The notes: generated from the letters alone by a model not told the origin. 64,000 nucleotides of DNA from Candidatus Campbellbacteria bacterium (GCA_016699465.1 CP064977.1:204993-268992), one strand, 5' to 3'; positions 1 to 21,384 are shown, counted from the stretch's first letter. Made by a program: numbers and translations.

Positions 1-37
1 ACTTCATCATGAGTTCTGGGCAGGAGGTGGGCATGGG

Positions 38-940
38 TTAGGGGGTGGGTTTGATTGTTATATGTGGGTACTTCGCGCGTAGTGTGTCTCGTTCGGTGGA
101 GGTGAGTTTCTCGAGGTAGAGACCACCACCTATGGATTGTGGGAGGATGAGACCTTCTGCGGAGGTGAGATTGTTGAGGTTGAGGAAACCACCTATGGAA
201 TGTGGGAGGATGAGACCTTCTGCTGAGGTGAGATTGTCGAGGTTGAGGCCGCCATCGATTGCATGTGGGAGGATGAGACCTTCTGCGGAGGTGAGGTTGT
301 TGAGGTAGAGATTACCACCAATGGAGTGTGGAAGTGTGAGACCTTCTGCGGAGGTGAGTTTCTCGAGGTAGAGACTGCCACCGATTGTATGTGGAAGGAT
401 GAGACCTTCTGCGGAGGTGAGACTCTCGAGGTCGAGATAGCCACCAATTGCGTGTGGAAGGATGAGACCTTCTGCGGAGGTGAGTCTGCCGAGGTAGAGA
501 TAGCCACCGATTGTATGTGGGAGGATGAGACCCTCTGCGGAGGTGAGGTTCTTGAGGTAGAGACCACACTTTTTGAGTACCGCAGTCATAGCAAGAGCTT
601 TGTTGAGTTCGGGAGTTGGTTGTATGGTGGAAAACCCAATCCACGATATGTGTTCGTGTTCGAATTGAAACTTAACGTCCTTACCCACCAAACCACGTAT
701 ACGTGTTCCTGCTTCTGCTTCAATACGAGGGAGGGCGTGTTCTTCAAAGGTAACCGGTTCGTATGCGTAGGTGAGGTACTCTTGTTGGAGGTGTGTGATG
801 TTTTGTTGTGCTGTGCGTACCGCTTCGTGTGCATCGGGTGTTCCTTCGTGCATGAGGGTGTCCGCTGCCTGTCGCAGAGTAGCAACCGCGTCTTTCCACG
901 CGTGGTACTTCATCATGAGTTCTGGGCAGGAGGTGGGCAT
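38..940 (-). CDS. Repeat-family paralog (conserved N-domain, 7 x 21-aa LTSAEGLxLPHxIGGxLxL repeats, conserved C-tag); function unknown.
   Basis: Full-length ORF in the same frame logic as the 5 neighbours. N-terminal 125 aa are >90% identical between copies. No signal peptide is visible. Confidence 0.7.
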   Translation of the reverse strand: MPTSCPELMMKYHAWKDAVATLRQAADTLMHEGTPDAHEAVRTAQQNITHLQQEYLTYAYEPVTFEEHALPRIEAEAGTRIRGLVGKDVKFQFEHEHISWIGFSTIQPTPELNKALAMTAVLKKCGLYLKNLTSAEGLILPHTIGGYLYLGRLTSAEGLILPHAIGGYLDLESLTSAEGLILPHTIGGSLYLEKLTSAEGLTLPHSIGGNLYLNNLTSAEGLILPHAIDGGLNLDNLTSAEGLILPHSIGGFLNLNNLTSAEGLILPQSIGGGLYLEKLTSTERDTLRAKYPHITIKPTP

Positions 941-943
941 AGG

Positions 944-2032
944 TTAGGGGGTTGGTTTGATTGTTATATGTGGGTACTTCGCGCGCAAGATGTCTCGTTC
1001 GGTTGAGGTGAGAGCATGGAGAACGAGGTCACCACCGATTGTATGTGGGAGGATGAGACCTTCTGCGGAGGTGAGGTTCCAGAAGTTAAGACTACCACCG
1101 ATTGTGTGTGGGAGTGTGAGACCTTCTGCGGAGGTGAGGCTGCCGAGGTTAAGACTGCCACCGATTGTGTGTGGGAGGATGAGACCTTTTGTGGAGGTGA
1201 GTTTCTCGAGGTTGAGGCCGCCATCGATTGTATGTGGGAGGATGAGACCTTCTGCGGAGGTGAGATTGTTGAGATAAAGGCCACCGATTGTATGTGGGAG
1301 TGTGAGACCTTCTGCGGAGGTGAGGTTGTTAAGGTAGAGGTCACCACCAATGGAGCGCGGAAGTGTGAGACCTTCTGCTGAGGTGAGATTGTCGAGATAG
1401 AGTCCACCACCAATGGAGTGCGGAAGTGTGAGACCTTCTGCTGAGGTGAGATTGTTGAGGAAGAGGTTGCCACCAATGGAGTGTGGGAGGATGAGACCTT
1501 CTGCGGAGGTGAGGCGGTTGAGGTAGAGGCCACCACCGATTGCGTGTGGGAGTGTGAGACCTTCTGCGAAGGTGAGACTCCTGAGGTCGAGGCCGCCACC
1601 AATGGAGTGTGGAAGAATGAGACCTTCTGCGGAGATGAGGTTGTTGAGGTAGAGGTCACACTTTTTGAGTACCGCAGTCATAGCAAGAGCTTTGTTGAGT
1701 TCGGGAGTTGGTTGTGTGGTGGAAAACCCAATCCACGATATGTGTTCGTGTTCAAAACCAAACCTAACGTCCCCACCCATCAAACCACGTATACGTGTTC
1801 CTGCTTCTGCTTCAATACGAGGGAGGGTGTGTTCTTCAAAGGTAACCGGTTCGTATGCGTAGGTGAGGTACTCTTGTTGGAGGTGTGTGATGTTTTGTTG
1901 TGCTGTGCGTACCGCTTCGTGTGCATCGGGTGTTCCTTCGTGCATGAGGGTGTCCGCTGCCTGTCGCAGAGTAGCAACCGCGTCTTTCCACGCGTGGTAC
2001 TTCATCATGAGTTCTGGGCAGGAGGTGGGCAT
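944..2032 (-). CDS. Repeat-family paralog, about 10 repeats.
   Basis: Same N- and C-terminal modules as the other copies, with an expanded repeat block. Confidence 0.7.
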   Translation of the reverse strand: MPTSCPELMMKYHAWKDAVATLRQAADTLMHEGTPDAHEAVRTAQQNITHLQQEYLTYAYEPVTFEEHTLPRIEAEAGTRIRGLMGGDVRFGFEHEHISWIGFSTTQPTPELNKALAMTAVLKKCDLYLNNLISAEGLILPHSIGGGLDLRSLTFAEGLTLPHAIGGGLYLNRLTSAEGLILPHSIGGNLFLNNLTSAEGLTLPHSIGGGLYLDNLTSAEGLTLPRSIGGDLYLNNLTSAEGLTLPHTIGGLYLNNLTSAEGLILPHTIDGGLNLEKLTSTKGLILPHTIGGSLNLGSLTSAEGLTLPHTIGGSLNFWNLTSAEGLILPHTIGGDLVLHALTSTERDILRAKYPHITIKPTP

Positions 2033-2035
2033 AGG

Positions 2036-3064
2036 TTAGGGGGTTGGTTTGATTGTTATATGTGGGTACTTCGCGCGCAAGATGTCTCGTTCGGTGGAGG
2101 TGAGTTTGCTGAGATAAAGGCTACCACCAATGGAGTGTGGGAGGATGAGACCTTCTACTGAGGTGAGACTGCCGAGGTAGAGATATCCACCGATTGTATG
2201 TGGGAGGATGAGACCTTCTACTGAGGTGAGGTTGTCGAGACTGAGATATCCACCAATTGCGCGTGGAAGGATGAGACCTTCTGCGGAGGTGAGTTTCTCG
2301 AGGTTGAGGCCGCCACCGATAGATTGTGGGAGGATGAGGTCTTTGGCGGAGGTGAGGTTCCAGAGGTTAAGACTGCCACCGATGGATTGTGGGAGGATGA
2401 GACCTTCTGCGGAGGTGAGGCGATTGAGGTAGAGGTCACCACCAATGGAGTGCGGAAGTGTGAGACCTTCTGCGGAGGTGAGGCGGTCGAGGTAGAGACC
2501 ACCACCGATTGTATGTGGGAGTGTGAGACCTTCTGCGGAGGTGAGATTGCTGAGGTCGAGATACCCACCAATTGAGTGTGGGAGTGTGAGACCTTCTGCG
2601 GAGGTGAGACCCCTGAGGTTGAGGCCGCCACCGATTGTATGTGGGAGTGTGAGACCTTCTGCGAAGGTGAGGTTCCTGAGGTCGAGGCCACACTTTTTGA
2701 GTACCGCAGTCATAGCAAGAGCTTTGTTGAGTTCGGGAGTTGGTCGTGTGGTGAAAAACCTAATCCACGATATGTGTTCGTGTTCAAAACCAAACCTAAC
2801 GTCCTTACCCATCAAACCACGTATACGTGCTCCTGCTTCTGCTTCAATACGAGGGAGGGTGTGTTCTTCAAAGGTAACCGGTTCGTATGCGTAGGTGAGG
2901 TACTCTTGTTGGAGGTGTGTGGTGTTTTGTTGTGCTGTGCGTACCGCTTCGTGTGCATCGGGTGTTCCTTCGTGCATGAGGGTGTCCGCTGCCTGTCGCA
3001 GAGTAGCAACCGCGTCTTTCCACGTGTGGTACTTCATCATGAGTTCTGGGCAGGAGGTGGGCAT
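2036..3064 (-). CDS. Repeat-family paralog, about 9 repeats.
   Basis: Same architecture as the other copies. Confidence 0.7.
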   Translation of the reverse strand: MPTSCPELMMKYHTWKDAVATLRQAADTLMHEGTPDAHEAVRTAQQNTTHLQQEYLTYAYEPVTFEEHTLPRIEAEAGARIRGLMGKDVRFGFEHEHISWIRFFTTRPTPELNKALAMTAVLKKCGLDLRNLTFAEGLTLPHTIGGGLNLRGLTSAEGLTLPHSIGGYLDLSNLTSAEGLTLPHTIGGGLYLDRLTSAEGLTLPHSIGGDLYLNRLTSAEGLILPQSIGGSLNLWNLTSAKDLILPQSIGGGLNLEKLTSAEGLILPRAIGGYLSLDNLTSVEGLILPHTIGGYLYLGSLTSVEGLILPHSIGGSLYLSKLTSTERDILRAKYPHITIKPTP

Positions 3065-3067
3065 GGG

Positions 3068-3970
3068 TTAGGGGGTGGGTTTGATTGTTATATGTGGGTA
3101 CTTGGCGCGTAGTGTGTCTCGTTCGGTTGAGGTGAGTTTGCTGAGATAAAGGCTACCACCAATGGAGTGTGGGAGCGTGAGGCCTTCTGCGGAGGTGAGG
3201 CGGTCGAGGTAGAGGTCACCACCGATTGTATGTGGGAGGATGAGACCTTCTGCGGAGGTGAGATTGTCGAGACTGAGATATCCACCAATTGTGCGTGGGA
3301 GCGTGAGACCTTCTGCGGAGGTGAGGCGGTCGAGGTAAAGATTGCCACCGATTGTGTGTGGGAGTGTGAGACCTTCTGCGGAGGTGAGGTTCTCGAGGTT
3401 GAGGCCGCCATCGATTGTATGTGGGAGGATGAGACCTTCTGCGGAGGTGAGATTGTCGAGGTTAAGACTGCCACCGATTGTATGTGGGAGGATGAGACCT
3501 TTTGTGGAGGTGAGGTTGCCGAGGTCGAGATACCCACCAATTGAGTGTGGGAGTGTGAGACCTTCTGCGGAGGTGAGGTTCCTGAGGTAGAGGCCATACT
3601 TTTTGAGTACCACCATCATGGCAAGAGCTTTGTTGAGTTCGGGAGTTGGTCGTGTGGTGGAAAACCTAATCCACGATATGTGTTCCTGTGCAAATTCAAA
3701 GTTGGCTTCCTCACCCATCAAACCACGTATACGTGTTCCTGCTTCTGCTTCAATACGAGGGAGGGTGTGTTCTTCAAAGGTAACCGGTTCGTATGCGTAG
3801 GTGAGGTACTCTTGTTGGAGGTGTGTGGTGTTTTGTTGTGCTGTGCGTACCGCTTCGTGTGCATCGGGTGTTCCTTCGTGCATGAGGGTGTCCGCTGCCT
3901 GTCGCAGAGTAGCAACCGCGTCTTTCCACGTGTGGTACTTCATCATGAGTTCTGGGCAGGAGGTGGGCAT
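3068..3970 (-). CDS. Repeat-family paralog, about 7 repeats.
   Basis: Same architecture as the other copies. Confidence 0.7.
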   Translation of the reverse strand: MPTSCPELMMKYHTWKDAVATLRQAADTLMHEGTPDAHEAVRTAQQNTTHLQQEYLTYAYEPVTFEEHTLPRIEAEAGTRIRGLMGEEANFEFAQEHISWIRFSTTRPTPELNKALAMMVVLKKYGLYLRNLTSAEGLTLPHSIGGYLDLGNLTSTKGLILPHTIGGSLNLDNLTSAEGLILPHTIDGGLNLENLTSAEGLTLPHTIGGNLYLDRLTSAEGLTLPRTIGGYLSLDNLTSAEGLILPHTIGGDLYLDRLTSAEGLTLPHSIGGSLYLSKLTSTERDTLRAKYPHITIKPTP

Positions 3971-3973
3971 GGG

Positions 3974-4939
3974 TTAGGGGGTGGGTTTGATTGTTATATG
4001 TGGGTACTTGGCGCGTAGTGTGTCTCGTTCGGTTGAGGTGAGTTTGCTGAGATAAAGGCTACCACCAATGGAGTGTGGGAGCGTGAGGCCTTCTGCGGAG
4101 GTGAGGCGGTCGAGGTAGAGGTCACCACCGATTGTATGTGGGAGGATGAGACCTTCTGCGGAGGTGAGACTTCCGAGGTCGAGGAAACCACCAATAGAGT
4201 GTGGAAGTGTCAGACCTTCTGCGGAGGTGAGGTTCTCGAGGTTGAGGCCGCCATCGATTGTATGTGGGAGGATGAGACCTTCTGCTGAGGTGAGATTGTC
4301 GAGACTGAGATATCCACCAATTGTGCGTGGGAGCGTGAGACCTTCTGCGGAGGTGAGGTTCTCGAGGTTGAGGCCGCCATCGATTGTATGTGGGAGGATG
4401 AGACCTTCTGCGGAGGTGAGATTGTCGAGGAAGAGGCCACCACCAATGGAGTGCGGAAGTGTGAGACCTTCTGCTGAGGTGAGGTCGCCGAGATTGAGAT
4501 ATCCGCCGATGGATTGTGGGAGGATGAGACCTTCTGCGGAGGTGAGACTCTCGAGGTCGAGGCCACACTTTTTGAGTACCACCATCATGGCAAGAGCTTT
4601 GTTGAGTTCGGGAGTTGGTTGTATGGTGGAAAACCCAATCCACGATATGTGTTCGTGTTCAAAACCAAACCTAACGTCCTTACCAATCAAACCACGTATA
4701 CGTGTTCCTGCTTCTGCTTCAATACGAGGGAGGGCGTGTTCTTCAAAGGTAACCGGTTCGTATGCGTAGGTGAGGTACTCTTGTTGGAGGTGTGTGATGT
4801 TTTGTTGTGCTGTGCGTACCGCTTCGTGTGCATCGGGTGTTCCTTCGCGCATGAGGGTGTCCGCTGCCTGTCGCAGAGTAGCAACCGCGTCTTTCCACGC
4901 GTGGTACTTCATCATGAGTTCTGGGCAGGAGGTGGGCAT
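3974..4939 (-). CDS. Repeat-family paralog, about 8 repeats.
   Basis: Same architecture as the other copies. Confidence 0.7.
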   Translation of the reverse strand: MPTSCPELMMKYHAWKDAVATLRQAADTLMREGTPDAHEAVRTAQQNITHLQQEYLTYAYEPVTFEEHALPRIEAEAGTRIRGLIGKDVRFGFEHEHISWIGFSTIQPTPELNKALAMMVVLKKCGLDLESLTSAEGLILPQSIGGYLNLGDLTSAEGLTLPHSIGGGLFLDNLTSAEGLILPHTIDGGLNLENLTSAEGLTLPRTIGGYLSLDNLTSAEGLILPHTIDGGLNLENLTSAEGLTLPHSIGGFLDLGSLTSAEGLILPHTIGGDLYLDRLTSAEGLTLPHSIGGSLYLSKLTSTERDTLRAKYPHITIKPTP

Positions 4940-4942
4940 AGG

Positions 4943-5719
4943 TTAGGGGGTGGGTTTGATTGTTATATGTGGGTACTTCGCGCGTAGTGTGTCTCGTTCT
5001 GCGGAGGTGAGGCTGCCGAGGTAGAGGTCACCACCGATTGTATGTGGGAGGATGAGACCTTCTGCTGAGGTGAGACTACTGAGGTCGAGGAAACCACCTA
5101 TGGAATGTGGGGGGATGAGACCTTCTGCGGAGGTGAGACGGTTGAGGTAGAAATTGCCACCGATTGTATGTGGGAGTGTGAGACCTTCTGCGGAGGTGAG
5201 GTTGTTGAGGTAGAGATTACCACCAATGGAGTGTGGAAGTGTGAGACCTTCTGCGGAGGTGAGGTTGTTGAGGTAGAGATTACCACCAATGGAGTGTGGA
5301 AGTGTGAGACCTTCTGCGGAGGTGAGGTTCCAGAGGTCGAGGCCACACTTTTTGAGTACCACCATCATGGCAAGAGCTTTGTTGAGTTCGGGAGTTGGTT
5401 GTGTAGCGGAAAACCCAACCCGCGATATGTGTTCGTGTTCAAAACCAAACCTAACGTCCTTACCCATCAAACCACGTATACGTGTTCCTGCTTCTGCTTC
5501 AATACGAAAGAGGGTGTGTTCTTCAAAGGTAACCGGTTCGTATGCGTAGGTGAGGTACTCTTGTTGGAGGTGTGTGGTGTTTTGTTGTGCTGTGCGTACC
5601 GCTTCGTGTGCATCGGGTGTACCTTCGTGCATGAGGGTGTCCGCTGCCTGTCGCAGAGTAGCAACCGCGTCTTTCCACGCGTGGTACTTCATCATGAGTT
5701 CTGGGCAGGAGGTGGGCAT
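4943..5719 (-). CDS. Repeat-family paralog, about 5 repeats; first gene of the array, next to a divergent promoter region.
   Basis: Same architecture. An intergenic region at 5720-5950 is shared with the divergent dnaE. Confidence 0.7.
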   Translation of the reverse strand: MPTSCPELMMKYHAWKDAVATLRQAADTLMHEGTPDAHEAVRTAQQNTTHLQQEYLTYAYEPVTFEEHTLFRIEAEAGTRIRGLMGKDVRFGFEHEHISRVGFSATQPTPELNKALAMMVVLKKCGLDLWNLTSAEGLTLPHSIGGNLYLNNLTSAEGLTLPHSIGGNLYLNNLTSAEGLTLPHTIGGNFYLNRLTSAEGLIPPHSIGGFLDLSSLTSAEGLILPHTIGGDLYLGSLTSAERDTLRAKYPHITIKPTP

Positions 5720-5951
5720 GGGTTAGGAAATAGTAACGTGAAATATACATAGAGTATACCGTAGGAAACGCACCTATAGAAGTAGAAGTCGAACTTCTGT
5801 GATTTCGCTACATTTTTCTTTTTTCCTTTCCCCACATACCAGCTACCACATACTATCTCTATTTGACAGCAAGCAGTAGAAACAGTCCCATATACACACG
5901 CTCGACAATCCACTCCTCATTTTGAACGTAAGAACGTACAATGAGGAACAT

Positions 5952-11047: not shown

Positions 11048-12015
11048 TTACGACACTAACGCCGACCTTGCATCGCGCAAACGCTTGAGCTGTGTCCGTG
11101 CGAGCGCAATCTTCTCTTCCTGCGCCGCAATTGCCGTGTCGATTGCATTTGCAATGCCGGAGAGATCCACAGCAACCGACTCGAGAACCGTGGTGGGTGT
11201 CGGAGGAACTTCCACCGTCTCAGGAGCCGTGGGTGTCTGAGGAACTTCCACCAACATAGGAGAGAGTTTCCGGAGAAACACCTCTCCCTCTGGCGAAATC
11301 CGAAAACGCAGTGGCCGGTTTTCGGAGTTGCGCTCGACTTCGAGATAACCGTTTCGCGCAATAGCTCCGAGGGCTCGCCCGACGGAACGGTTGTCCACCC
11401 TAGGCATCACGTGTTCCTTGACGAGTTCCAGCGCCGAGGTTGAGGAGATCCATTCGCCGATGCCCACCTTCTCTTGGAAGAGAATGAGCACCAGCCCGAA
11501 CTGATTGGGATCCTCACTGAAGCCACGAAGTGACTCGTGCGCAACGGGCGAGAGCCCTTGCATCTCAGCCTGCTCGCGAATGGTGACCGGCTGCGACAAC
11601 ACAACCGGAACAACGGGCGTCACTGGAATGGTCTCCGGAACAGGAATCGTCGCCTGTGGCGACTCGGAAACAACCTCAGGAGCCCAATTGCGCTTCTGCG
11701 CCGCTTCCAACGCCTTGTAGCAAGCAATGATGGAGTAGCCGTTAGGGACGACGAGTCCGCATTCGTGCGCTGAATCGTTGCTCCCCGGTTTCACGTACAC
11801 AGCGATGCTCCCTCGTCGATCGTCATGACCGAGCACCTTGAACTCCGGCCGGTGCGTGGTCCCTTTGACTTTGGGTCCGAGACGAAGCGTCCACGTCTCC
11901 TCACGATCAGAGAGCGGGAATCCTGCAAATTGCAGGTACCGCTCAACGAGACTCTTAGTTCCCTTTGGGACATCCATTCCACGGCGTCCCGTATCAACTA
12001 ACACGAACAGCATGT
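11048..12015 (-). CDS. GC-rich hypothetical protein with a central winged-helix-like segment and a C-terminal coiled coil.
   Basis: ORF with RBS aaggag before the ATG at 12015. About 58% GC against a flanking ~40%. The stretch RALGAIARNGYLEVERN...RFRISPEGEVFL is wHTH-like. Confidence 0.5.
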
Positions 12016-12105
12016 GTAACTCCTTTCTTTCTGTTAAAGAACTAGTTTTTTGAGACAGAAAACAGAACATCTCTGTCTCCAACTGCCAGCAAATTACACC
12101 AGAAT

Positions 12106-12651
12106 TTACATGTTGTCAACACGAGTTATTGGAAACATTTCATCCACAACCCACTTTTTTTCACCTTCTTTACGAAAAAGGGTGATGTTATCAAACGGCA
12201 CAACAAAATATGGTTTAGGAAGCGTATTCACGTACTTCCAAATTTTTTCTATTTTCTCTGGAGATACGTCATTGTCAGCAAGTGTTGCGTGGGGAACAAA
12301 ATTCGGAAAATCTTCTTTTGGTAGTACTGCCATAATTTTTTGACGTATGTCTGCGATAGCGTCTTCGGTACTCTTTTCCATATCAACAGCAGCAAATACC
12401 ACCCTATCTGCGAAGCGATCAAACCCAGAAAGCGTTAACGTTCCTGAAACAGAATATTTTTGTATCCACGCTCGCAATAAATCTTTTATTGGAGAAACGT
12501 CATCCATGTTAAAGGGCCGATACAATGTAATGTGAGAAGGAATGTACTCATGTATTTTCCACGTATCAAATTTTTCGGAAATATCCTTCGCAAGTGCTGT
12601 GTGCCATTTCCCCGCTTCTTCTTGAATTGCAAAACCAATAAAATACCTCAT
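12106..12651 (-). CDS. 2H phosphoesterase (LigT/ThpR-like cyclic phosphodiesterase).
   Basis: Two H-x-T-x motifs (HITL and HATL), about 180 aa. Overlaps the upstream gene by 4 nt. Confidence 0.7.
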   Translation of the reverse strand: MRYFIGFAIQEEAGKWHTALAKDISEKFDTWKIHEYIPSHITLYRPFNMDDVSPIKDLLRAWIQKYSVSGTLTLSGFDRFADRVVFAAVDMEKSTEDAIADIRQKIMAVLPKEDFPNFVPHATLADNDVSPEKIEKIWKYVNTLPKPYFVVPFDNITLFRKEGEKKWVVDEMFPITRVDNM

Positions 12652-13118
12652 ATTCCTGTACTAAACAAATCCTCTGGTAAATAGATAATTTCAATACCTA
12701 GACGTTGCGCTTGATCATGCTCCCAATTCGCACCACGAGATGTTTTCCAGTCAGGGAGAAAGTATAAGGTATCTACAAGTTTATTTTCAAAAATAGGCGA
12801 ATAAAATTCTTCAAGTAATCGCATGGAATATGAAACATTCGGTTCTAGTTCTTTCTTTATTCGCTGCATCGGAACTTCAAACGGCATTTGATTAAACACC
12901 TCAACGTCATTTTGTAAAATATGTTCGAGTGCAACATCAAATCTTTTTAGGTTTGCTTCTACAGAACCAGCGCCACCTGTTGAAATAGGGCCACACATTT
13001 GTCCTCGCGGTCTTGGCATACGATCGAGTATGCGTTTGGCAATTGTAAAAAGTTCACCATACGATTGTGCAGTTTCCAGCGCATCTTTGTCCTCTTGTGT
13101 CCAGTATTCTTTCGACAT
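12648..13118 (-). CDS. DUF4406-like protein (nucleoside 2-deoxyribosyltransferase-like fold).
   Basis: C-terminal motif DWKTSRGANWEHDQAQRLGIEIIYL matches the W-x-x-S-R-G-A-x-x-E-H...II-Y signature recalled for DUF4406. Confidence 0.55.
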   Translation of the reverse strand: MSKEYWTQEDKDALETAQSYGELFTIAKRILDRMPRPRGQMCGPISTGGAGSVEANLKRFDVALEHILQNDVEVFNQMPFEVPMQRIKKELEPNVSYSMRLLEEFYSPIFENKLVDTLYFLPDWKTSRGANWEHDQAQRLGIEIIYLPEDLFSTGI

Positions 13119-13182
13119 AAGAACGATTGTATCACCTCATAAAACAACTCCAAAAAATTGGAACATTCCTTACTGTACTCTT

Positions 13183-13215
13183 GACAATAAGTAACCAAGG
13201 TATATTCTTCAGAGT
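13183..13215 (+). promoter_or_regulatory. Sigma70-like promoter for pnuC-nadR-nrtR.
   Basis: TTGACA, 17-nt spacer, TATATT. Confidence 0.5.
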
Positions 13216-13243
13216 ATATTAGTTTGATTAATCCCTAAATCTT

Positions 13244-13909
13244 ATGGACGGATTCTTTAGTGTCAATAATATAGTTTTTACAGTTATCGGATATCCAATG
13301 AGCTATATTGAGTTCTTTGGTACCCTCCTCAATATATGGTGCGTATATCTTGTAGCAAAAAATAAAACACTCAACTGGCCTGTTGGTATTGTGGCAACTA
13401 TCCTTTTTGGATTTCTTTTCTTTCAAATTAATTTATATGCTGATTTTCTTGAACAAATCTATTTCCTCCTCACAGGTTTCTGGGGTTGGTGGGCGTGGAG
13501 TACGGGTAAAAAGAGCGCAAAAGAAGAGAAGCCCGTTCTCGCTCTTTCTTTCACATCTCGTCTGGGGTGGATACTTATCACGTTTGTCGGAACACTCATT
13601 TTAGGATATGTGGATGCCCATCTCAATGTATACTTTCCAAAAGTTTTTACAGAAGCAGCATCATTCCCTTACCTCGACTCGTTTACAACAATCATGAGTT
13701 TTGTAGCAACAATTTTACTTATACACAAAGAATTCGAGGCTTGGTATCTTTGGATTCTTGTGGATATTATTGGTATCTGGCTCTACTGGATAAAAGATGT
13801 TCACTTTGTATCTATTCTATATGTTATCTTCTTTATTCTTGCTGTAAACGGACTCACTACCTGGCGTAAACTTTACAAAAAACAACAATCGCTACAAAAA
13901 ACCATATGA
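13244..13909 (+). CDS. pnuC: Nicotinamide riboside transporter PnuC.
   Basis: Multi-TM protein with the PnuC-like N-terminus NIWCVYLVAKNKTLNWPVGIV and a W-rich loop. Confidence 0.75.
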   Translation: MDGFFSVNNIVFTVIGYPMSYIEFFGTLLNIWCVYLVAKNKTLNWPVGIVATILFGFLFFQINLYADFLEQIYFLLTGFWGWWAWSTGKKSAKEEKPVLALSFTSRLGWILITFVGTLILGYVDAHLNVYFPKVFTEAASFPYLDSFTTIMSFVATILLIHKEFEAWYLWILVDIIGIWLYWIKDVHFVSILYVIFFILAVNGLTTWRKLYKKQQSLQKTI

Positions 13910-14865
13910 TAAAAGGATTCATTATCGGAAAATTCTATCCGTTTCACCTTGGTCATATGTATTTGATTGATGTAGCGAGAGCAAATTGTGACCATTTGAT
14001 TGTTTGGGTCTGTGAAAAAGCAGAACAAACAGTGCTTGGCCATGTTCGTGCCAACTGGATCAAAGAATTATATCCCGATGTTGAGGTACGACTCATACCT
14101 GACACACTTGCAGATGATGATACACAAGGGTGGGCAACATATACACTTCGTGTGCTTGGCGAAGCACCGGATATTGTTTTCACTTCAGAAGACTATGGTG
14201 AGCCGTACGCAAAACTCATGGGCTCACGGCATATAATTGTTGATAAACACCGGGTACACATTCCTATCTCTGGAACGAAAGTTCGTAATGATGCCATCGC
14301 AAATTGGGCCTACCTAGCACCTCCTGTACGAGCCCACTATGCAAAACGTGTCGTTGTGCTAGGTGCGGAATCAACAGGAACCACAACACTTTCAAAAGCA
14401 CTTGCGGAACATTTTCAAACCACATGGGTACCTGAATATGGTCGGGAATACTGTTTACATCGTATAGAAGATCCTGATAAAAAATGGAGTACGGATGAAT
14501 TTATTCATATCGCCTCAGAGCACTCGCGTCGTGAAGATGAGCTGGCCAGAAACGCATATGGAGTTTTGATTAGCGATACTGATGCGTTTGCTACATCAAT
14601 ATGGCACAAACGTTATATGGGATTTTATTCGCCGGAAGTGCAAAAAATTGCTAATAAAAGGAGGGTGGATTTATACATACTTACCGGAGACGAAATTCCT
14701 TTTGTGCAAGATGGCACTCGAGATGGTGAAAACATTCGTCACGAAATGCACATTTGGTTCATTGAAGAAATGAAACGGACAGGAAGAACATACGTCTTAG
14801 TACAAGGTACCCCCGAAGAAAGACTACAGCAGTCTATCAGTGCTATAGAAAAGATTTTAGTTTAA
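13906..14865 (+). CDS. nadR: NadR-like bifunctional NMN adenylyltransferase / ribosylnicotinamide kinase (no HTH domain).
   Basis: N-terminal GKFYPFHLGH (H-x-G-H nucleotidyltransferase motif) and a C-terminal P-loop-like GAESTGTTT...EYGREY resembling the NadR RNK domain. Overlaps pnuC by 4 nt. Confidence 0.75.
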   Translation: MIKGFIIGKFYPFHLGHMYLIDVARANCDHLIVWVCEKAEQTVLGHVRANWIKELYPDVEVRLIPDTLADDDTQGWATYTLRVLGEAPDIVFTSEDYGEPYAKLMGSRHIIVDKHRVHIPISGTKVRNDAIANWAYLAPPVRAHYAKRVVVLGAESTGTTTLSKALAEHFQTTWVPEYGREYCLHRIEDPDKKWSTDEFIHIASEHSRREDELARNAYGVLISDTDAFATSIWHKRYMGFYSPEVQKIANKRRVDLYILTGDEIPFVQDGTRDGENIRHEMHIWFIEEMKRTGRTYVLVQGTPEERLQQSISAIEKILV

Positions 14866-14878
14866 CTATACAAAGTAT

Positions 14879-15562
14879 ATGACACCCAACTCACCACACG
14901 TTAAGTTTGCGATACTTGCATCTGACACAGCTATCTTTACCGTTCGAGATGGAGAACTACTTGTACGTCTCGTAAATGTTGATCGCCCTCCCCACTTTAA
15001 AAATATTCCCGGACTTCCTGGTGGTCTACTCACCCCAAAAGAAACAGCTGACGAAGCAGCACTTCGTCATATAGAGGAGAAGGCACACATCAAAGCAAGT
15101 AAACTATATATTGAACAACTATACACTTTTAGTGCTGTACACCGCGATCCACGAGGACGTGTCGTTGCTGTCGCACATACCGCACTGATCCCTTGGGAAA
15201 ATCTCTCAGCAACAGAGCAAATGGATACCAATGGCGCACAGTGGGTATCTGTCTCGAGTGCACACAAACTTGCATATGACCACGATGAAGTTCTCACTGT
15301 TGCTGTAAATCGTCTACGATCACGTTCCACGTACACAACCATCGTCAGTAAACTCATGCCAGCAGAATTCACACTTTCAGAATTAGAAAAAACATACGAA
15401 AGTATTCTTAAAACCCAATTTGATAAACGAAACTTTCGTAAAAAAATTCTGAAACTGAAAATCCTCAAAGAACTTCCACACAAACGAACCGGTGTTGCGT
15501 TTCGTCCTGCAGCACTCTACACATTCGCGTCTCCTAAAGTTAAAGAGATCGAAATTCTCTAA
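14879..15562 (+). CDS. nrtR: NrtR-like regulator (Nudix-like N-domain plus C-terminal wHTH).
   Basis: Degenerate Nudix box (GGLLTPKETADEAALRHIEEKAHI) and a C-terminal basic helical domain typical of NrtR. Sits in a NAD-salvage context. Confidence 0.6.
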   Translation: MTPNSPHVKFAILASDTAIFTVRDGELLVRLVNVDRPPHFKNIPGLPGGLLTPKETADEAALRHIEEKAHIKASKLYIEQLYTFSAVHRDPRGRVVAVAHTALIPWENLSATEQMDTNGAQWVSVSSAHKLAYDHDEVLTVAVNRLRSRSTYTTIVSKLMPAEFTLSELEKTYESILKTQFDKRNFRKKILKLKILKELPHKRTGVAFRPAALYTFASPKVKEIEIL

Positions 15563-15572
15563 ACGTGTCTTT

Positions 15573-15598
15573 AAAAAGCCCCTACCAAAGGGCTTTTT
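15573..15598 (+). terminator. Intrinsic terminator after nrtR.
   Basis: Hairpin aaaaagcccctaccaaagggcttttt. Confidence 0.8.
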
Positions 15599-15629
15599 AG
15601 TTATCCCCCATATTGATTTGCTAAGGTGC

Positions 15630-15720
15630 TTGACAGCCAGATACTTATTGTATAACATACACTTAGTACAGAGTTTTGAGGGCATATATTTTTTACCTTT
15701 ACTTAGTGTAATGTATACAA
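15630..15720 (+). promoter_or_regulatory. Promoter-like element for nadM with two inverted copies of a ~19-nt motif; candidate operator.
   Basis: TTGACA (15630-15635), 15-nt spacer, TATAAC. The motif gtataacatacacttagta lies at about 15650-15668, and a near-identical inverted copy (gtatacattacactaagta as its reverse complement) lies at about 15700-15718. Confidence 0.4.
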
Positions 15721-15770
15721 TATCTACCCTCTCAATTCGTAGCGTTCTTTGACAAGGAGAATACACAGAC

Positions 15771-16676
15771 ATGAGAAACACAACTGTTGGCGTCGTCGTC
15801 GCCAGGTTCCAGGTAGCGAAACTCCACAAGGGGCACACTTACCTCATCGACTACGTGAACTCGCGCTGCGACAACCTACTCATCATCCTCGGTACAGCTC
15901 GATCCTTCCCCACCAAGAAGAACCCCCTGTCCTTCGAGATGCGCCGGCTGATGATCGCGAACCGGTATCCAAACGCGATCATTGTCCCGCTTCGCGATAC
16001 CAAACTCGACTCCCGTTGGAGTACCGAGCTGGACCTCGCCATCTCCTCTGCCCTTCCCGGTGGTGTTGATGGCCACACCGTCACACTGTACGGTTCCCGT
16101 GATTCCTTCATCGACTTCTACACCGGTGTGCATGCAACACACCTTGTCCCTCCTCTAGGAACGAGCAACGGTACGAAGAACCGTGAGCGTCTCGCGAACA
16201 TCACCGACTCGGTGAAGTTTCGTGAAGGTGTCATCCACACGCAGATGAGCAGGCCGCCGGCCGTGTACCCCACGGTTGACATCGCCATCATCAAACGTGA
16301 GACCAATGAGGTCCTTCTCGGCGGTAAGAATGTGGACGGTGGCAAGCTTCGCTTCGTCGGCGGATTCGTTGACCCGAAGGATACCTCGTATGCAGTCGCT
16401 GCTAAGCGAGAAGTGTACGAAGAAACCACGGGCATCGAAATCGCCGATCTCAAGGAAGTTGGTTCCGCAAGAATCGACGACTGGAGGTATCGGGGCACCG
16501 GAGACAGCGTCATCACGACCTTCTTCACCGCTACGTACATCTTCGGTGCGCTTTGCGCCAGCGACGACCTCGATCGTCTTGTGTGGGTCCCTATCCCTCA
16601 CGTGATAGAGTATCTCGTTCCGGAGCACGAGCCTCTCGGGCTCATGCTTCTCAAGCACTTCAACCAGACCCTGTGA
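15771..16676 (+). CDS. nadM: Bifunctional NMN adenylyltransferase (NadM-type) / Nudix hydrolase.
   Basis: N-terminus GVVVARFQVAKLHKGH is a NadM-type nucleotidyltransferase signature. C-terminal Nudix box ...AAKREVYEETTG. About 60% GC. Confidence 0.75.
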   Translation: MRNTTVGVVVARFQVAKLHKGHTYLIDYVNSRCDNLLIILGTARSFPTKKNPLSFEMRRLMIANRYPNAIIVPLRDTKLDSRWSTELDLAISSALPGGVDGHTVTLYGSRDSFIDFYTGVHATHLVPPLGTSNGTKNRERLANITDSVKFREGVIHTQMSRPPAVYPTVDIAIIKRETNEVLLGGKNVDGGKLRFVGGFVDPKDTSYAVAAKREVYEETTGIEIADLKEVGSARIDDWRYRGTGDSVITTFFTATYIFGALCASDDLDRLVWVPIPHVIEYLVPEHEPLGLMLLKHFNQTL

Positions 16677-16692
16677 CAACAAGGAGAACGCC

Positions 16693-18096
16693 ATGAACGC
16701 ACACATCGAGCTCGGCAACACCGTCACTCGCACCGACAGCTACAAGGTCTCGCACCACCTGCAGTACCCTCCGAAGACCGAGATCCTCTTCTCCTTCTTC
16801 GAGAGCCGCGGGGGCGAGTTCCCCGGCGTGACCTTCTTCGGTCTCCAGTACATCCTCAAGCGGTATCTCGAGGGTGTCGTGGTCACCGAGCAAACGATCG
16901 CCAAGGCCCGTCGGCGCTTCGCCGCGCACTTCGGCTCCGACACGCTCTTCAACGAGAAGGGCTGGCGTAGGATCATCGATGTCCACGGCGGCAAGCTCCC
17001 CATCCGCATCAAGGCCGTTCCCGAAGGAACCACGGTTCCCACGAGCAACGTCCTGATGACCATCGAGAACACGGACCCCGAGCTGCCCTGGCTCACGAAC
17101 TACATCGAGACCATCCTCACCCAGGTGTGGTACCCCTCGACCGTCGCGACCCAGAGCCGTGCGATGCGCAAGCTCGTCCTCTCGTTCCTCGAGAAGACCG
17201 GTGACCCCTCACTCGTCGACTTCAAGGTCCACGACTTCGGGTACCGCGGTTCGACGTCCAACGAGTCCGCTGGCATCGGCGGCGCTGCCCATCTCGTCTC
17301 CTTCAAGGGGACGGACACGATGGTAGCGCTCGACGTCATCGAGGACTTCTACGGCGAGGAGTGCGCGGGGTTTTCCATCCCCGCTGCGGAGCACTCCACG
17401 ATCACGTCGTGGGGCAAGGAGCACGAGGTCGACGCCTACCGCAACATGCTGACCTCGTTCCCTTCCGGTCTCGTCGCCGTCGTCTCCGACAGCTACGACA
17501 TCTACAACGCCTGCAGCCAGCTGTGGGGCAAGGAGCTCAAGGAAGCGGTCATCAATCGTGACGGTGTCCTCGTCGTTCGCCCCGACAGCGGCTATCCGCC
17601 CGACGTCGTGGTGAAGGTGCTCGACATCCTCGGCAACGCCTTCGGCTACAGCATCAACAGCAAGGGCTACAAGGTGCTCAATCCGAAGGTACGCGTCATC
17701 CAGGGCGACGGCATCGACTTCTCGATGCTGCGCCGGGTGCTCGAGGCGATGGAGCAGCACGGATGGTCGGCCGACAACGTCGCATTCGGTTCCGGTGGCG
17801 GCCTGCTGCAGAAGGTGAATCGCGACACCCTGCGCTTCGCCTTCAAGGCTTGCGCTGTCCGTATCGACGGCCTCTGGCACGACGACATCATGAAGGATCC
17901 CGTGACCGATCACTCCAAGCGTTCGAAGGCTGGACGTCTCGTCCTCGTCAAGGACGACAAGACGTACAAGACGATGCGCGAGGAAGAGGCGATGCGGTCG
18001 GGGCTCCCCAACGAGCTCGTCACGGTCTTCGAGAACGGTGAGCTCCTCAAGGAGTACACCTTCGCCGAGATTCGTGAACGTGCCCTCATCGGCTGA
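16693..18096 (+). CDS. nadV: Nicotinamide phosphoribosyltransferase (NAMPT/NadV).
   Basis: N-terminal TDSYKVSHHLQYP is a NAMPT hallmark; 467 aa; about 62% GC. RBS aaggaga lies 7 nt upstream of the ATG. Confidence 0.85.
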   Translation: MNAHIELGNTVTRTDSYKVSHHLQYPPKTEILFSFFESRGGEFPGVTFFGLQYILKRYLEGVVVTEQTIAKARRRFAAHFGSDTLFNEKGWRRIIDVHGGKLPIRIKAVPEGTTVPTSNVLMTIENTDPELPWLTNYIETILTQVWYPSTVATQSRAMRKLVLSFLEKTGDPSLVDFKVHDFGYRGSTSNESAGIGGAAHLVSFKGTDTMVALDVIEDFYGEECAGFSIPAAEHSTITSWGKEHEVDAYRNMLTSFPSGLVAVVSDSYDIYNACSQLWGKELKEAVINRDGVLVVRPDSGYPPDVVVKVLDILGNAFGYSINSKGYKVLNPKVRVIQGDGIDFSMLRRVLEAMEQHGWSADNVAFGSGGGLLQKVNRDTLRFAFKACAVRIDGLWHDDIMKDPVTDHSKRSKAGRLVLVKDDKTYKTMREEEAMRSGLPNELVTVFENGELLKEYTFAEIRERALIG

Positions 18097-18920: not shown

Positions 18921-19484
18921 TTATACTTTTCTGTATCGAAAACACGACACAGTGTGATCATTAACCATACCTGTTGCTTGCATATGCGCATAGATAGTTG
19001 TTGAGCCTAAAAATTTGAAACCACGTTTTTTTAAATCGAGTGCAAGTGCATCCGACTCTTTTGTTTTTGGTTGATACTCTTTGAGAGTTTTTATTTTGTG
19101 CGTCATTGGTTTGTGATTCACAAAAGACCAAATATATTTTGAAAATGTGCCAAACTCTTTTTGTACTTCAAGGAAACGCTGTGCGTTGTTTATTGCCGCT
19201 TCAATTTTTGCACGATTGCGGATTATACCTTCGTTTTTTAGAAGCTGCCGTACTTCTTTTTTTCCAAACTGTGCCACCTTTTTAGGATTGAACTGTGCAA
19301 ATGCTTTTCTGTAGTTTTCTCTCTTACGAAGCACGGTGAGCCACGAGAGTCCTGCTTGTGCACTTTCAAGCACTAAAAATTCAAATATCTTTTTGTCATC
19401 ATACACAGGAACACCCCACTCTTCATCGTGATATTTTTCATACAGCGCGTCGCCTTCTTTAACCCACGGACAACGTTTTATCAT
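18921..19484 (-). CDS. tag: DNA-3-methyladenine glycosylase I.
   Basis: EFLVLESAQAGLSWLTVLRKRENYRKAF matches the Tag family; 187 aa. Confidence 0.85.
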   Translation of the reverse strand: MIKRCPWVKEGDALYEKYHDEEWGVPVYDDKKIFEFLVLESAQAGLSWLTVLRKRENYRKAFAQFNPKKVAQFGKKEVRQLLKNEGIIRNRAKIEAAINNAQRFLEVQKEFGTFSKYIWSFVNHKPMTHKIKTLKEYQPKTKESDALALDLKKRGFKFLGSTTIYAHMQATGMVNDHTVSCFRYRKV

Positions 19485-19634
19485 GTTGTGACCCTAACGA
19501 TACAGAACTCAAAACCAATAGTCCAGTTTCTCCAAGAGCTCAGTAGTATAGCCTCTAAATTCTCTAGCCTCCAAAAAGATGTTTCTACACCAACAGCTCA
19601 ACTACAAGAGATACTCCCTTAATGAGTTTAAAAT

Positions 19635-20345
19635 CTATAAACCCACCTCTTTCATTACAACAGTGATGAGATCAAATATCTCTTGTACATTTGCATCTTC
19701 CATCTCTTTTTTTGAAGCAATATGAAAAAGAGAATGTGTTTTATCATTTGCGTCATCTTTAAAAGGAGTTGCCTTTTGTTTGATTCGTTCAATAGCACTT
19801 GAACCCGAAATAGAGAACTTCGTCCGTGACCTAAAAAAATTGTCTAACACAATACTAAAGTCCAAAGATCTCCTACTTGTGTTGTCTTCGTACAGTTTTT
19901 TATTCTTTACACTCGGAAATTTTTTCTTAAGGATTTGTACTATCAAATTTTCCATTACCTTTCGGCAAAGAATAAATGTCGCAGTACAACAATTTGCATG
20001 GTAAGTTCCATTTATTTCCTCAACATGTCGTAGGATAAAACTGTTTGTGGAAGGAAAGACCAAAATTGGAGGAAGTGGGCGCTTTCCACTCCTAACACTC
20101 GGACGCGCAGCCACTGGCACAACAGGTATGGTAGTAACTGTGGCTAATGATTTTTTATCATCATCGTCCAAAAAACGCATGAGGGATTTTCCTTTTTTTC
20201 TTGCCAAATACTGTGCTGCAGCTGCTGGTGTAAGTTGTGGGTGTGCATATTTGATTTCAGAAATACGGACAGCAAGAGAGCCTTTTGTGAGTCTAAGTGT
20301 CTTTATCAGGTGCTCACGAATTTCTTTACGCAGTATCTTTCCCAT
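19635..20345 (-). CDS. Hypothetical protein (236 aa), last gene of the HTH-quartet operon.
   Basis: ORF overlaps the upstream gene by 20 nt. No confident domain; the N-terminus is weakly similar to the HTH paralogs. Confidence 0.5.
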   Translation of the reverse strand: MGKILRKEIREHLIKTLRLTKGSLAVRISEIKYAHPQLTPAAAAQYLARKKGKSLMRFLDDDDKKSLATVTTIPVVPVAARPSVRSGKRPLPPILVFPSTNSFILRHVEEINGTYHANCCTATFILCRKVMENLIVQILKKKFPSVKNKKLYEDNTSRRSLDFSIVLDNFFRSRTKFSISGSSAIERIKQKATPFKDDANDKTHSLFHIASKKEMEDANVQEIFDLITVVMKEVGL

Positions 20346-20529
20346 ATTTTCTTATTGTCTTATTTACAATCTTTGCCACAGCATCAACGTCTGCTTGGTC
20401 AATCCCAAGAATTTCGCGCATCTCCTTGTTCCCCATACCTACTTGTCTGGCATGGAGGATAAATAAAGCCTGTACCCCTTTGTAGAGTTTTTCTTCTGTG
20501 GTAAGAGCCATTCGTTTCTTTTTAGTCAT
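20326..20529 (-). CDS. Small HTH protein, paralog 4 (sigma-70 region 4 / LuxR-like).
   Basis: 67 aa with HTH GMGNKEMREILGIDQADVDAVAKIV. Confidence 0.55.
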   Translation of the reverse strand: MTKKKRMALTTEEKLYKGVQALFILHARQVGMGNKEMREILGIDQADVDAVAKIVNKTIRKYGKDTA

Positions 20530-20719
20530 GAGTTTCTTTGGGAACTCTTATTCCCTTTACTAGACCATTAATTTTTCCAACTGACATGTTCAAGCCTGTT
20601 GCAATTTGTTTTTGTCCTGCACCACCCTTGTACATCTGGACAGCAATCAAGTGTTCTAGAAGGGATGCAATTCTTTGTAGTTTTGCATCTAATAGATGTG
20701 TTTGTTGTTTATTTTTCAT
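20522..20719 (-). CDS. Small HTH protein, paralog 3 (start chosen at MKNKQQ..).
   Basis: HTH GAGQKQIATGLNMSVGKINGLVKGI. Overlaps the neighbouring ORFs by a few nt. The track ORF 20522..20857 has an N-extension that overlaps paralog 2. Confidence 0.45.
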   Translation of the reverse strand: MKNKQQTHLLDAKLQRIASLLEHLIAVQMYKGGAGQKQIATGLNMSVGKINGLVKGIRVPKETHD

Positions 20720-20921
20720 GTTTCTTTTTGTTTTTTCTAGCATTGTGTAAAGCAACATTGACTGTGTTTGGTGTTGTATCAAGCAACTCAGCAATACGTT
20801 TTGGGGAAAGTCCCACATGACCCATTTCCTGTATAACCGCAGATTGTAAAGCTCCACGCTTCACCAGAACTGCCAATAACATCACCACCTCTTTTTGTGT
20901 TTGTAATATCTCTTTGTCCAT
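20709..20921 (-). CDS. Small HTH protein, paralog 2.
   Basis: 70 aa. GLSPKRIAELLDTTPNTVNVALHNARK is a classic sigma-r4/LuxR-type HTH. Confidence 0.6.
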   Translation of the reverse strand: MDKEILQTQKEVVMLLAVLVKRGALQSAVIQEMGHVGLSPKRIAELLDTTPNTVNVALHNARKNKKKHEK

Positions 20922-20923
20922 AG

Positions 20924-21139
20924 TTATTTTTTAGCCCTCTGTAGTGTCTTTTGAACTGCAGGAAGACCCTTACCCAATAATGTGGCTATATCCTTGCTTT
21001 CAAGCCCAATCTTGTCTAGTACGACCTCTAGTTTGACTTTCTTACTTTTTAAGAGTCCCTCGTCCCCCAAAAGTACCAGCACCGCCAAAATAGCAGAGAG
21101 CTTTTTTTCTATGTTTTCAAGGGTTTTTGAGTCATTCAT
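20924..21139 (-). CDS. Small HTH protein, paralog 1.
   Basis: 71 aa, GLESKDIATLLGKGLPAVQKTLQRAKK. Stop and start are 2 nt from paralog 2. Confidence 0.6.
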   Translation of the reverse strand: MNDSKTLENIEKKLSAILAVLVLLGDEGLLKSKKVKLEVVLDKIGLESKDIATLLGKGLPAVQKTLQRAKK

Positions 21140-21260
21140 ATACTTTTTATTATCTCTTATATGGACAGTATAACATAAATAAGCCTGAAATACAATGATT
21201 TTGCCTATTTTTGTCCATCATTACTAAGATTTATGTTTTACCAACGGTGAATAAAAACAT

Positions 21261-21293
21261 ATCGTGGCTTTGTTAAGCCACGCTATGTCTAAC
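21261..21293 (-). terminator. Intrinsic terminator (minus strand) after the 85-aa gene.
   Basis: cgtggctttgttaagccacg hairpin followed on the minus strand by atatgttttta. Confidence 0.5.
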
Positions 21294-21384
21294 TTTTGAA
21301 TATTATATATGAGCACCACAATATATCGGTGTACATATGTCAATTTGACACAGGGTTTCAGTATTACAGGGCAATGACCACCAA

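Follow-up and report, generated by a model that had tools for sequence, protein, structure and literature searches.

Why should an ultra-small, episymbiotic bacterium with a genome of 811 kb carry a row of almost identical repeat-protein genes? The question is raised by a 64,000-nucleotide stretch of the Candidatus Campbellbacteria bacterium genome (GCA_016699465.1 CP064977.1:204993-268992). The whole of this stretch is referred to as the window, and its first 5,719 nucleotides are occupied by a tandem array of genes on the minus strand. Each gene encodes a constant N-terminal domain (N-domain), a block of 21-residue units that resemble leucine-rich repeats (LRRs), and a constant C-terminal cap.

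The evidence leans, if only slightly, towards one overall explanation: the array consists of about 11 recently expanded and probably co-transcribed genes, and represents a repertoire of soluble cytoplasmic LRR binders. Its components differ in strength. It is very probable that the genes encode proteins of the N-domain/LRR/cap type, that they expanded recently, and that the copies recombine. It is reasonably likely that they form a diversified set of binders at an interface of biological conflict. A specific role as intracellular neutralisers or sensors, suggested by analogy, is tentative at best.

Organization of the array

Six complete genes, encoding proteins of 258-362 residues, lie within positions 1-5719. 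Of a seventh only the first 34 nucleotides, or 11 codons, are inside the window, and the remainder lies beyond its left edge. Every junction between genes is exactly 3 bp long and follows the pattern TAA-CCY-ATG. Each protein begins with the N-domain of about 125 residues, continues with 5-10 copies of the 21-residue unit, and ends with the cap. Gene limits are those of open reading frames (ORFs). The features of the array are as follows:

1-34, minus strand: start of the seventh array gene (MPTSCPELMMK...), read from the sequence; IPJ70_01095 by position
38-940, minus strand: array gene, 300 residues, N-domain + 7 LRR units + cap (ORF and repeat parsing)
944-2032, minus strand: array gene, 362 residues, N-domain + 10 LRR units (one of 20 residues) + cap (ORF and repeat parsing)
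2036-3064, minus strand: array gene, 342 residues, N-domain + 9 LRR units + cap (ORF and repeat parsing)
3068-3970, minus strand: array gene, 300 residues, N-domain + 7 LRR units + cap; the copy used for the structure model
3974-4939, minus strand: array gene, 321 residues, N-domain + 8 LRR units + cap; IPJ70_01120, QQR82699.1 (ORF and database match)
4943-5719, minus strand: first, promoter-proximal array gene, 258 residues, N-domain + 5 LRR units + cap; IPJ70_01125, QQR82700.1 (ORF and database match)
5345-5719, minus strand: example of the constant N-domain, residues 1-125 of the first gene, with a variable patch at residues 85-107 (predicted secondary structure and variable columns)
5030-5344, minus strand: example of the LRR block in the first gene, 5 x 21 residues, xLxLxxLTSAEGLxLPxxIGG (Tandem Repeats Finder, parsing and entropy)
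4943-5029, minus strand: example of the C-terminal cap in the first gene, xLxLxxLTSAERDTLRAKYPHITIKPTP + stop (tag motif kept family-wide)
5720-5800, minus strand: putative single promoter and leader of the array, with a TATACT -10-like box at 5753-5758 and a perfect palindrome, AGAAGTTCGACTTCT, at 5784-5798

In each gene, Tandem Repeats Finder identifies a 63-bp period repeated 5.5-10 times. Parsing yields 7, 10, 9, 7, 8 and 5 full units in the genes from 38-940 to 4943-5719, or 46 altogether, one of which is 20 residues long; each gene also has one cap unit. The C-terminal tag, (T/A)ERD(T/I)LRAKYPHITIKPTP, is found in all six complete genes. Insertions and deletions between copies are without exception in frame, and nearly always comprise whole 63-bp units. 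No hydrophobic N-terminus or transmembrane segment is seen in the array proteins of the window, where the maximum Kyte-Doolittle score over 17 residues does not exceed 1.2. An initial annotation, made from the sequence, had described at least seven head-to-tail minus-strand genes spaced by 3 bp, with a shared N-domain of about 125 residues, a shared tag, 5-10 copies of a 21-residue unit and no signal peptide, and the present parsing agrees with it on all of these points.

Weak hairpins resembling terminators occur in the N-domain coding region of each gene. Their stems are only 5 bp long and they recur as the genes recur, and they were rejected as functional terminators.

The repeat unit and its predicted fold

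The 300-residue copy at 3068-3970 was modelled with AlphaFold2 from an alignment of 11 sequences. The model is confident, with a predicted local distance difference test score (pLDDT) of 92.4 and a predicted template modelling score (pTM) of 0.83. Its N-terminal part opens with a long helical hairpin (residues 6-59), which leads through a beta-hairpin and a helix to a second beta-hairpin (89-103) and a further helix (110-121). The repeat block has short strands every 21 residues, and is followed by a closing helix (281-290) and a strand. With high confidence, the repeat block is predicted to be an LRR solenoid in which each unit makes one turn and the strands form a parallel beta-sheet. The cap is confidently modelled as a structural element, a helix and short strand that close the solenoid.

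LRRs can be recognized as units of 20-30 residues with a regular aliphatic core, and the 21-residue units are of this kind. Leucine at positions 2, 4, 7, 13 and 15 and isoleucine at position 19 have few or no exceptions in the 46 units. The Asn/Cys ladder residue (position 9 of LxxLxLxxN/CxL) is not present; Leu-Thr-Ser is found there instead (LxLxxLTS), in 46 of 46 units. The unit is an atypical LRR subtype, and the missing ladder leaves the assignment of the fold standing.

The subtype is also new, having neither a database model nor a description in the literature. LRR models of Pfam and NCBIfam have zero matches to the array proteins of the window even at E<=1, and sub-threshold matches to FNIP and LRR_EndoS appear only in relatives that are 35% identical. 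Searches of PDB sequences (with phmmer), PADLOC and PHROGs match none of these proteins. In the literature, no description was found under LRRs in Patescibacteria, also called the candidate phyla radiation (CPR), or under the motif LTSAEGL. Pfam and NCBIfam matches to DUF7131, HNH_5, TarH and threonine synthase are sub-threshold and were discarded as spurious products of the repeats. A hypervariable locus of Gracilibacteria was considered as a counterpart and rejected, as it consists of an unrelated PTD repeat. A seeming LRR match in a preprint on a defence screen proved to be the initials of an author.

Variable positions and selection

Seven of the 21 positions (1, 3, 5, 6, 14, 17 and 18) vary among the 46 units. 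Positions 1, 3, 5 and 6, the x residues of xLxLxx, have entropies of 1.8-2.7 bits and are occupied mainly by G, Y, N, D, S, F, E, R and W. Variation is moderate, at 0.8-1.3 bits, at positions 14 (I/T), 17 (H/Q/R) and 18 (T/S/A). The remaining 14 positions have 0-5 exceptions in 46 units, and the L/P/G/I scaffold has 0-2, much as had been claimed when variation was placed at 6-7 positions per repeat on a constant scaffold. The units are well mixed among the genes: whether two of them come from the same gene or from different ones, they agree at 81% of nucleotides on average, and a single identical pair exists among the 46.

Selection can be examined by pairing each unit with its nearest neighbour. 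In such pairs the scaffold codons have a proportion of synonymous differences (pS) of 0.047 and of nonsynonymous differences (pN) of 0.008. The scaffold pN/pS of 0.15-0.18 indicates, with high confidence, strong purifying selection on these residues. At positions 1, 3, 5 and 6, pN reaches 0.406, which is 8.6 times the scaffold pS. This is strong evidence, from sequence comparison, that diversity is maintained at the strand positions, although it falls short of formal proof that omega exceeds 1.

In solved LRR proteins, the ligand-binding face is made up of the residues marked x in the strand motif xLxLxx. The initial annotation had likened the pattern to a diversified binding surface. A predicted LRR solenoid, variation at the x positions and the excess of pN over scaffold pS are all consistent with that likeness.

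The constant N-domain

The N-domains of the six genes (126 codons) are 94-98% identical as DNA and 87-95% identical as protein. Among their 14 informative sites, all four gametes are present in 65 of 91 pairs, and therefore the copies recombine with or convert one another. Ongoing gene conversion or very recent amplification had been proposed for the array, and both find support: the first in the four-gamete result, the second in the single copy of a sister genome, described below.

Changes within the N-domain have a pooled pN/pS of about 1.4 and are concentrated at residues 85-107, which correspond to the second beta-hairpin. This hairpin probably abuts the first turn of the LRR block.

As to its relatives, the N-domain is an orphan: phmmer, run exhaustively against 1.84 billion representatives, returned only its own cluster and one other, 35% identical. 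The domain is confined to two lineages; that it had not been recognized at first sight is in keeping with this. A profile search for relatives, contaminated by LRR columns, added no further architecture with the N-domain, and fold comparison returned nothing beyond a generic helical hairpin. The idea that the N-domain is an adaptor associated with effectors was rejected, as no protein without LRRs carries it.

Extent and origin of the array

The product of the first array gene is identical to hypothetical protein IPJ70_01125, and IPJ70_01120, 01090 and 01075 are further members of the family. Their accessions (QQR82700, 82699, 82693 and 82690) fit a consecutive numbering for IPJ70_01125, 01120, 01090 and 01075. 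The run of accessions from QQR82690 to QQR82700 therefore makes IPJ70_01075 to 01125 a series of 11 consecutive protein-coding genes. Seven of these are in the window or touch it, two more are confirmed family members, and IPJ70_01080 and 01085 presumably belong to the family as well. The accessions thus imply an array of about 11 genes, whose far end is reconstructed from locus tags, accessions and synteny with a sister genome.

This sister genome is represented by a contig (L003) assembled at JGI. Its DnaE fragment is 96% identical to that of the window as protein and 84% as DNA, with synonymous divergence (dS) of 1.28 and a ratio of nonsynonymous to synonymous divergence (dN/dS) of 0.02. 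As in the window, dnaE is divergent from an LRR gene, but here the gene is a single copy, P0005, which encodes 215 residues with three units and is followed downstream by RNase HII, L32 and nusB. P0005 ends in an alternative tag, ...EKEELKKKYPSLSSKIG, and the same tag is found on P0004, that is, IPJ70_01075, the last gene of the array. Thus the ancestral gene survives at the end of the array in the window genome, which has added about ten copies to it. Sequence comparison gives high confidence that the expansion is recent and started from a single gene, one still present at the dnaE-adjacent locus of the sister species.

Between the N-domains of window 5345-5719 and L003 1290-1667, dS is about 0.27, against about 1.28 for dnaE, and dN is 0.11, against 0.028. 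The low dS of the N-domain may reflect strong codon bias or recent exchange of genes between lineages.

Composition and expression

The array genes have a content of guanine plus cytosine (GC) of 52-54%, against about 43% in neighbouring housekeeping genes, so the elevation over the backbone noted at the outset is real. It arises because the array prefers codons ending in C. Relative to a background of 14 genes, CTC accounts for 85% of leucine codons against 23%, TCC for 60% against 4%, and C3 is 0.44 against 0.15.

It had also been remarked that no Shine-Dalgarno sequence precedes the starts of the array genes. The observation is correct, but it is not specific to the array: the sequence is missing before nearly all genes of the window, and its absence is therefore a property of the organism rather than a feature of the array. 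Within the window, AAGGAG occurs only in a high-GC island of NAD-salvage genes. Many window genes have a TATACT box about 7-10 nucleotides before the start codon (for instance upstream of 48938, 56955, 62285 and 45255), which suggests that leaderless mRNAs, or mRNAs with very short leaders, are widespread in this organism.

The only promoter-like, conserved stretch of the array is found upstream of its first gene. About 60 nucleotides are conserved there in the sister genome, although synonymous sites of dnaE are saturated. The palindrome AGAAGTTCGACTTCT, just upstream of the TATACT box, is a candidate operator.

The wider family

The proteins of the window fit into a larger "LTSAEGL" LRR family, defined by the 21-residue unit xLxLxxLTSAEGLxLPxx(I/V)GG and a C-terminal cap motif. 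The cap motif, L(T/S)xxE(K/R)xxLRxx(Y/R)PxL, is widely conserved in this family. The module of repeats and cap has 321 phmmer matches down to an E-value of 1e-3, located over the repeat-and-cap half of the proteins and accompanied by many different N-terminal regions. A DNA pattern of two successive TSAEGLxLP motifs 63 nucleotides apart was found in at least 120 genome loci. The matches listed include Saccharibacteria, Uhr-, Pace-, Falkow-, Kerfeld-, Shapiro-, Nomura- and Woesebacteria, many reduced-genome gut "Bacilli", Tenericutes and CAG metagenome-assembled genomes (MAGs), and a few others. No 17-residue stretch in 137 family ORFs from 124 loci scores 1.8 or more for hydrophobicity, and these ORFs therefore have no Sec signal or membrane anchor.

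The commonest architecture among the matches listed is a protein of about 610 residues, in which a strongly conserved N-region of about 440 residues precedes the LTSAEGL LRR. It has at least 2036 matches at 55-69% identity, is always annotated as "hypothetical", and contains no Pfam domain. An example can be found at L071 5699-7873, with the motifs LERTHxGHxDDP, GWCTAGE...FYVYY...PRIAIRM...EVRGI and FLYEIDxxIxGFGY.

Most loci have a single copy, and arrays of three or more genes occur in five loci among the matches listed. A second array is present in one Patescibacterium, known from two independent assemblies (L001 and L126). It has at least 8-9 paralogs, which share a different constant N-domain of about 170 residues followed by 4-7 units, and the same unit positions are hypervariable, at 2.5-3.5 bits. 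The array brackets a conserved trio of genes, which encode a protein of 139 residues, a MoxR-type AAA_5 ATPase and a vWA (CobT_C-like) protein (L001 3425-7182; L126 10445-14191). As this array is independent, the combination of a constant N-domain with hypervariable LTSAEGL LRRs in arrays arose at least twice.

Directly after the L001 array is a gene for the DNA recombination protein RmuC (11174-12211), and in L002 another RmuC gene (12987-14036) stands two genes away from the single-copy homolog. This proximity is possibly a coincidence.

A related repeat is also found in a phage. Positions 1-735 of EBPR podovirus 1 (L128, JF412294.1), from activated sludge, contain an unannotated, 5'-truncated ORF with at least 10 units of a related 21-residue LRR (LPTSIGGSLxLSGCDLTGIT), adjoining the early genes recT, exo and ssb.

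Possible function

How such an array might work can be outlined as follows. A single conserved promoter upstream of 5719 would drive a polycistronic mRNA, and the TAA-CCY-ATG junctions would couple translation of successive genes by termination and reinitiation, with no need of a Shine-Dalgarno sequence. In this way the cell would produce all variants at once, unlike in antigenic variation, where they are made singly. The protein partner would be one that evolves fast, and each variant would use its concave face to bind another version of it. With no enzymatic domain present, binding would be stoichiometric, and it could serve to recognise or neutralise foreign proteins that enter the cell, such as those of phages, or toxins from the host bacterium or from competitors, much as ribonuclease inhibitor or arrays of orphan immunity genes do. 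Over time the number of repeats shifts by whole 63-bp units, and the copies exchange sequence by recombination or gene conversion. An intracellular role in conflict is favoured because enzymatic and signalling domains and export signals are all missing and copy number turns over fast. The sequences predict a cytoplasmic location for the proteins.

Several observations weigh against this explanation. The relative of about 610 residues looks like a core function of Patescibacteria and not like a conflict protein. Since the same LRR module is carried by so conserved a core protein, the ancestral ligand may have been endogenous. The classical pN/pS at the variable codons is 0.6, below 1, because whole codons are swapped and synonymous differences are saturated. 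The 8.6-fold contrast is calculated with scaffold synonymous sites, which gene conversion has perhaps homogenised, and on pairs of units picked by scaffold identity. Variable residues are placed on the concave face by the LRR register and by strand positions from DSSP, not by a measured surface. The cytoplasmic location is deduced solely from missing Sec and transmembrane signals, and contact-dependent export would be compatible with their absence. No gene for an effector, toxin or sensor output adjoins the array on the dnaE side, within the window, and PADLOC and PHROGs return nothing for the array proteins. Finally, receptor, effector and conflict roles alike are read from the sequence and a structural model.

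As the main alternative, the array proteins could be effectors or adhesins that are translocated into a host bacterium by a Sec-independent, contact-dependent route, such as a monoderm-type type IV secretion system (T4SS) or the pilus machinery usual in Patescibacteria. Their variable faces would bind proteins or surface structures of the host cell and in this way set host range. Such proteins would be counterparts of IpaH, SspH and YopM, and either the constant N-terminal part or the basic tag at the C-terminus might act as the export signal. T4SSs are widespread in Patescibacteria (PMC12102498). Translocation is nonetheless unlikely: no secretion-system genes were found among the 49 larger window ORFs scanned against Pfam, the tag is confidently modelled as a cap and is conserved in the core-like relatives of about 610 residues, and export signals (0 of 137 relatives) and enzymatic effector domains are missing. 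A redundant family, amplified for instance for dosage and drifting under relaxed constraint, would have no need of specificity to explain its variation. The near-neutral pN/pS of about 1.4 in the N-domain, the change from one copy to about 11 between sister species and the atypical codon usage would all suit such drift, which is improbable given that all six complete ORFs are intact and that the consecutive accessions cover 11 genes, none annotated as a pseudogene. The scaffold is under purifying selection (pN/pS 0.15-0.18), indels are exclusively in frame and almost always of 63-bp units, and in the 46 units variation is limited to one set of seven positions, which is also where the independent array varies.

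That the array is an artefact, in which one repeat gene was mis-expanded or strain variants were concatenated, deserves attention in a MAG, where tandem and nearly identical N-domains are hard to assemble. Such an error is very improbable. Each copy has a unique order of unique units, with a mean identity of 81% and one identical pair among 46; the copies contain different numbers of repeats, meet at exact junctions and are free of frameshifts. The source contig is 811 kb long (811,376 bp), and comparable arrays are present in independent JGI and NCBI assemblies. The initial annotation had itself named an assembly artefact of one gene as an outcome that would overturn it; what was found are intact ORFs and units that are nearly all unique. 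Some strain chimerism may exist inside the array. A dedicated mutator is hardly to be credited, be it a diversity-generating retroelement or a single expression site supplied by cassettes as in antigenic variation, even though variation is tightly concentrated in a small number of codons and favours residues of the Y/N/D/S/G type. The 49 scanned ORFs include no reverse transcriptase, and the variable codons show no adenine-specific pattern (GGC/TAT/AGT/AAT/GAC/TTC and GAC/AAC/GAG/GGC/AGG/TGG are examples). Each copy has its own start, stop, full N-domain and cap, which leaves no silent cassette.

The repertoire of co-expressed cytoplasmic binders can be generalized, although the generalization is doubtful. 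Patescibacteria might use germline arrays of hypervariable LRR proteins, expressed together in the cytoplasm, as an innate, receptor-like repertoire that recognises phage or host-derived proteins, or else as translocated determinants of host range. Such arrays would be assembled from an ancient LRR module, the one also found on the core-like protein of about 610 residues, and would grow and shrink between sister species through unequal crossing-over. To our knowledge, Patescibacteria are largely without known defence systems.

The investment is considerable. About 10 kb, or some 1.3% of the 811-kb genome (estimated from 11 genes of about 0.95 kb), is spent on one diversifying family of which the sister species has one gene. 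In streamlined genomes, such spending usually marks an interface with host, phages or competitors, the least understood part of Patescibacteria biology. Since domain databases do not see the LRR module, a name and a model for it would bring annotation to a substantial part of microbial dark matter. The array is also a natural example of how bacterial LRRs diversify through the shuffling of repeats and genes. Partners specific to individual variants can be searched for directly, and could address how epibionts recognise their partners or resist attack.

Other genes of the window

The other window genes are ordinary chromosomal ones. They include dnaE (divergent from the array), thrS, mraZ/mraW, genes for penicillin-binding proteins, murein ligases and aminoacyl-tRNA synthetases, mreBC and uvrB. 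The Pfam scan of the 49 larger ORFs returned no MoxR ATPase, any more than a reverse transcriptase or a secretion system.

A cluster for NAD salvage at 13244-18096 encodes a PnuC-like transporter of nicotinamide mononucleotide, a NadR-like AAA_28/cytidylyltransferase, NrtR (NUDIX plus winged helix-turn-helix), a NUDIX protein and NAMPT. Its part at 15771-18096 has 59-63% GC and contains the sole window genes with AAGGAG, and the sequence suggests that this island was acquired horizontally.

Positions 19000-24540 form a low-GC stretch (35-40%). It contains a LOOT RNA (RF03000, 68.9 bits) at 22180-22288 and a large serine recombinase at 22956-24503, whose 3' end overlaps a tRNA-Glu(CTC) on the opposite strand (24465-24540). 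The stretch may be an integrated element.

Two further genes have tandem repeats. A compositionally odd ORF of 344 residues at 11048-12082 (minus strand) has 57% GC, no Pfam match and a 36-bp repeat at 11193-11262. At 57751-59775 (minus strand), a PD40/WD40-like beta-propeller protein of 674 residues contains 5.9 copies of a 174-bp repeat (58621-59645) and coincides with a local GC peak.

Comparison with known systems

Short bacterial LRR proteins are the most obvious point of reference. Examples are LIC11098 and LIC12234 of Leptospira, and IpaH, SspH and YopM, the latter three with "LPX" LRRs of 20-22 residues. The array consensus differs from all of these in having Leu/Thr in place of the canonical Asn/Cys, and lies outside the Pfam LRR models. 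IpaH and SspH have a NEL ligase domain, whereas Pfam and NCBIfam identify neither this nor any other enzymatic domain in the array proteins. The Leptospira proteins have signal peptides, which the array proteins lack. IpaH and YopM need a type III secretion system, and we know of none in Patescibacteria. The strict head-to-tail arrangement with 3-bp spacing further sets the array apart from these proteins.

Diversified LRR repertoires are known from eukaryotes. The variable lymphocyte receptors of jawless vertebrates come from one gene, assembled somatically from promoterless cassettes, whereas the array has about 11 complete germline genes. In contrast to both these receptors and the NLR/RLP clusters of plants, the array proteins are predicted to be cytoplasmic, have no membrane anchor or signalling domain, and belong to a bacterium whose genome measures 811 kb. 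FNIP repeats (PF05725), found in Dictyostelium and the giant virus CroV (PDB 7zal), differ in consensus and taxonomic range, and FNIP has no match to the proteins of the window.

Immunity arrays of polymorphic toxins resemble the array in several respects: absence of signal peptides, domain-poor predicted binders, tandem paralogs and fast changes in copy number. LRR-type immunity proteins act as stoichiometric inhibitors, as does ribonuclease inhibitor, a cytosolic LRR protein that neutralises invading RNases. Unlike in immunity arrays, no gene for a toxin or its delivery adjoins the array on the side inside the window, where its upstream neighbour is dnaE; in the sister genome RNase HII lies downstream. 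Pfam, NCBIfam and PADLOC show no sequence relationship to immunity families.

Within the "LTSAEGL" LRR family itself, most other members are single-copy and have other N-regions, whereas the N-domain of the window is limited to two lineages. Neither LRR proteins as such nor their multi-copy families and hypervariable faces are without precedent. What is new here is the orphan N-domain, a predicted cytoplasmic array with 3-bp spacing in an ultra-small genome, its expansion from one gene to about 11, and the recurrence of such arrays in Patescibacteria.

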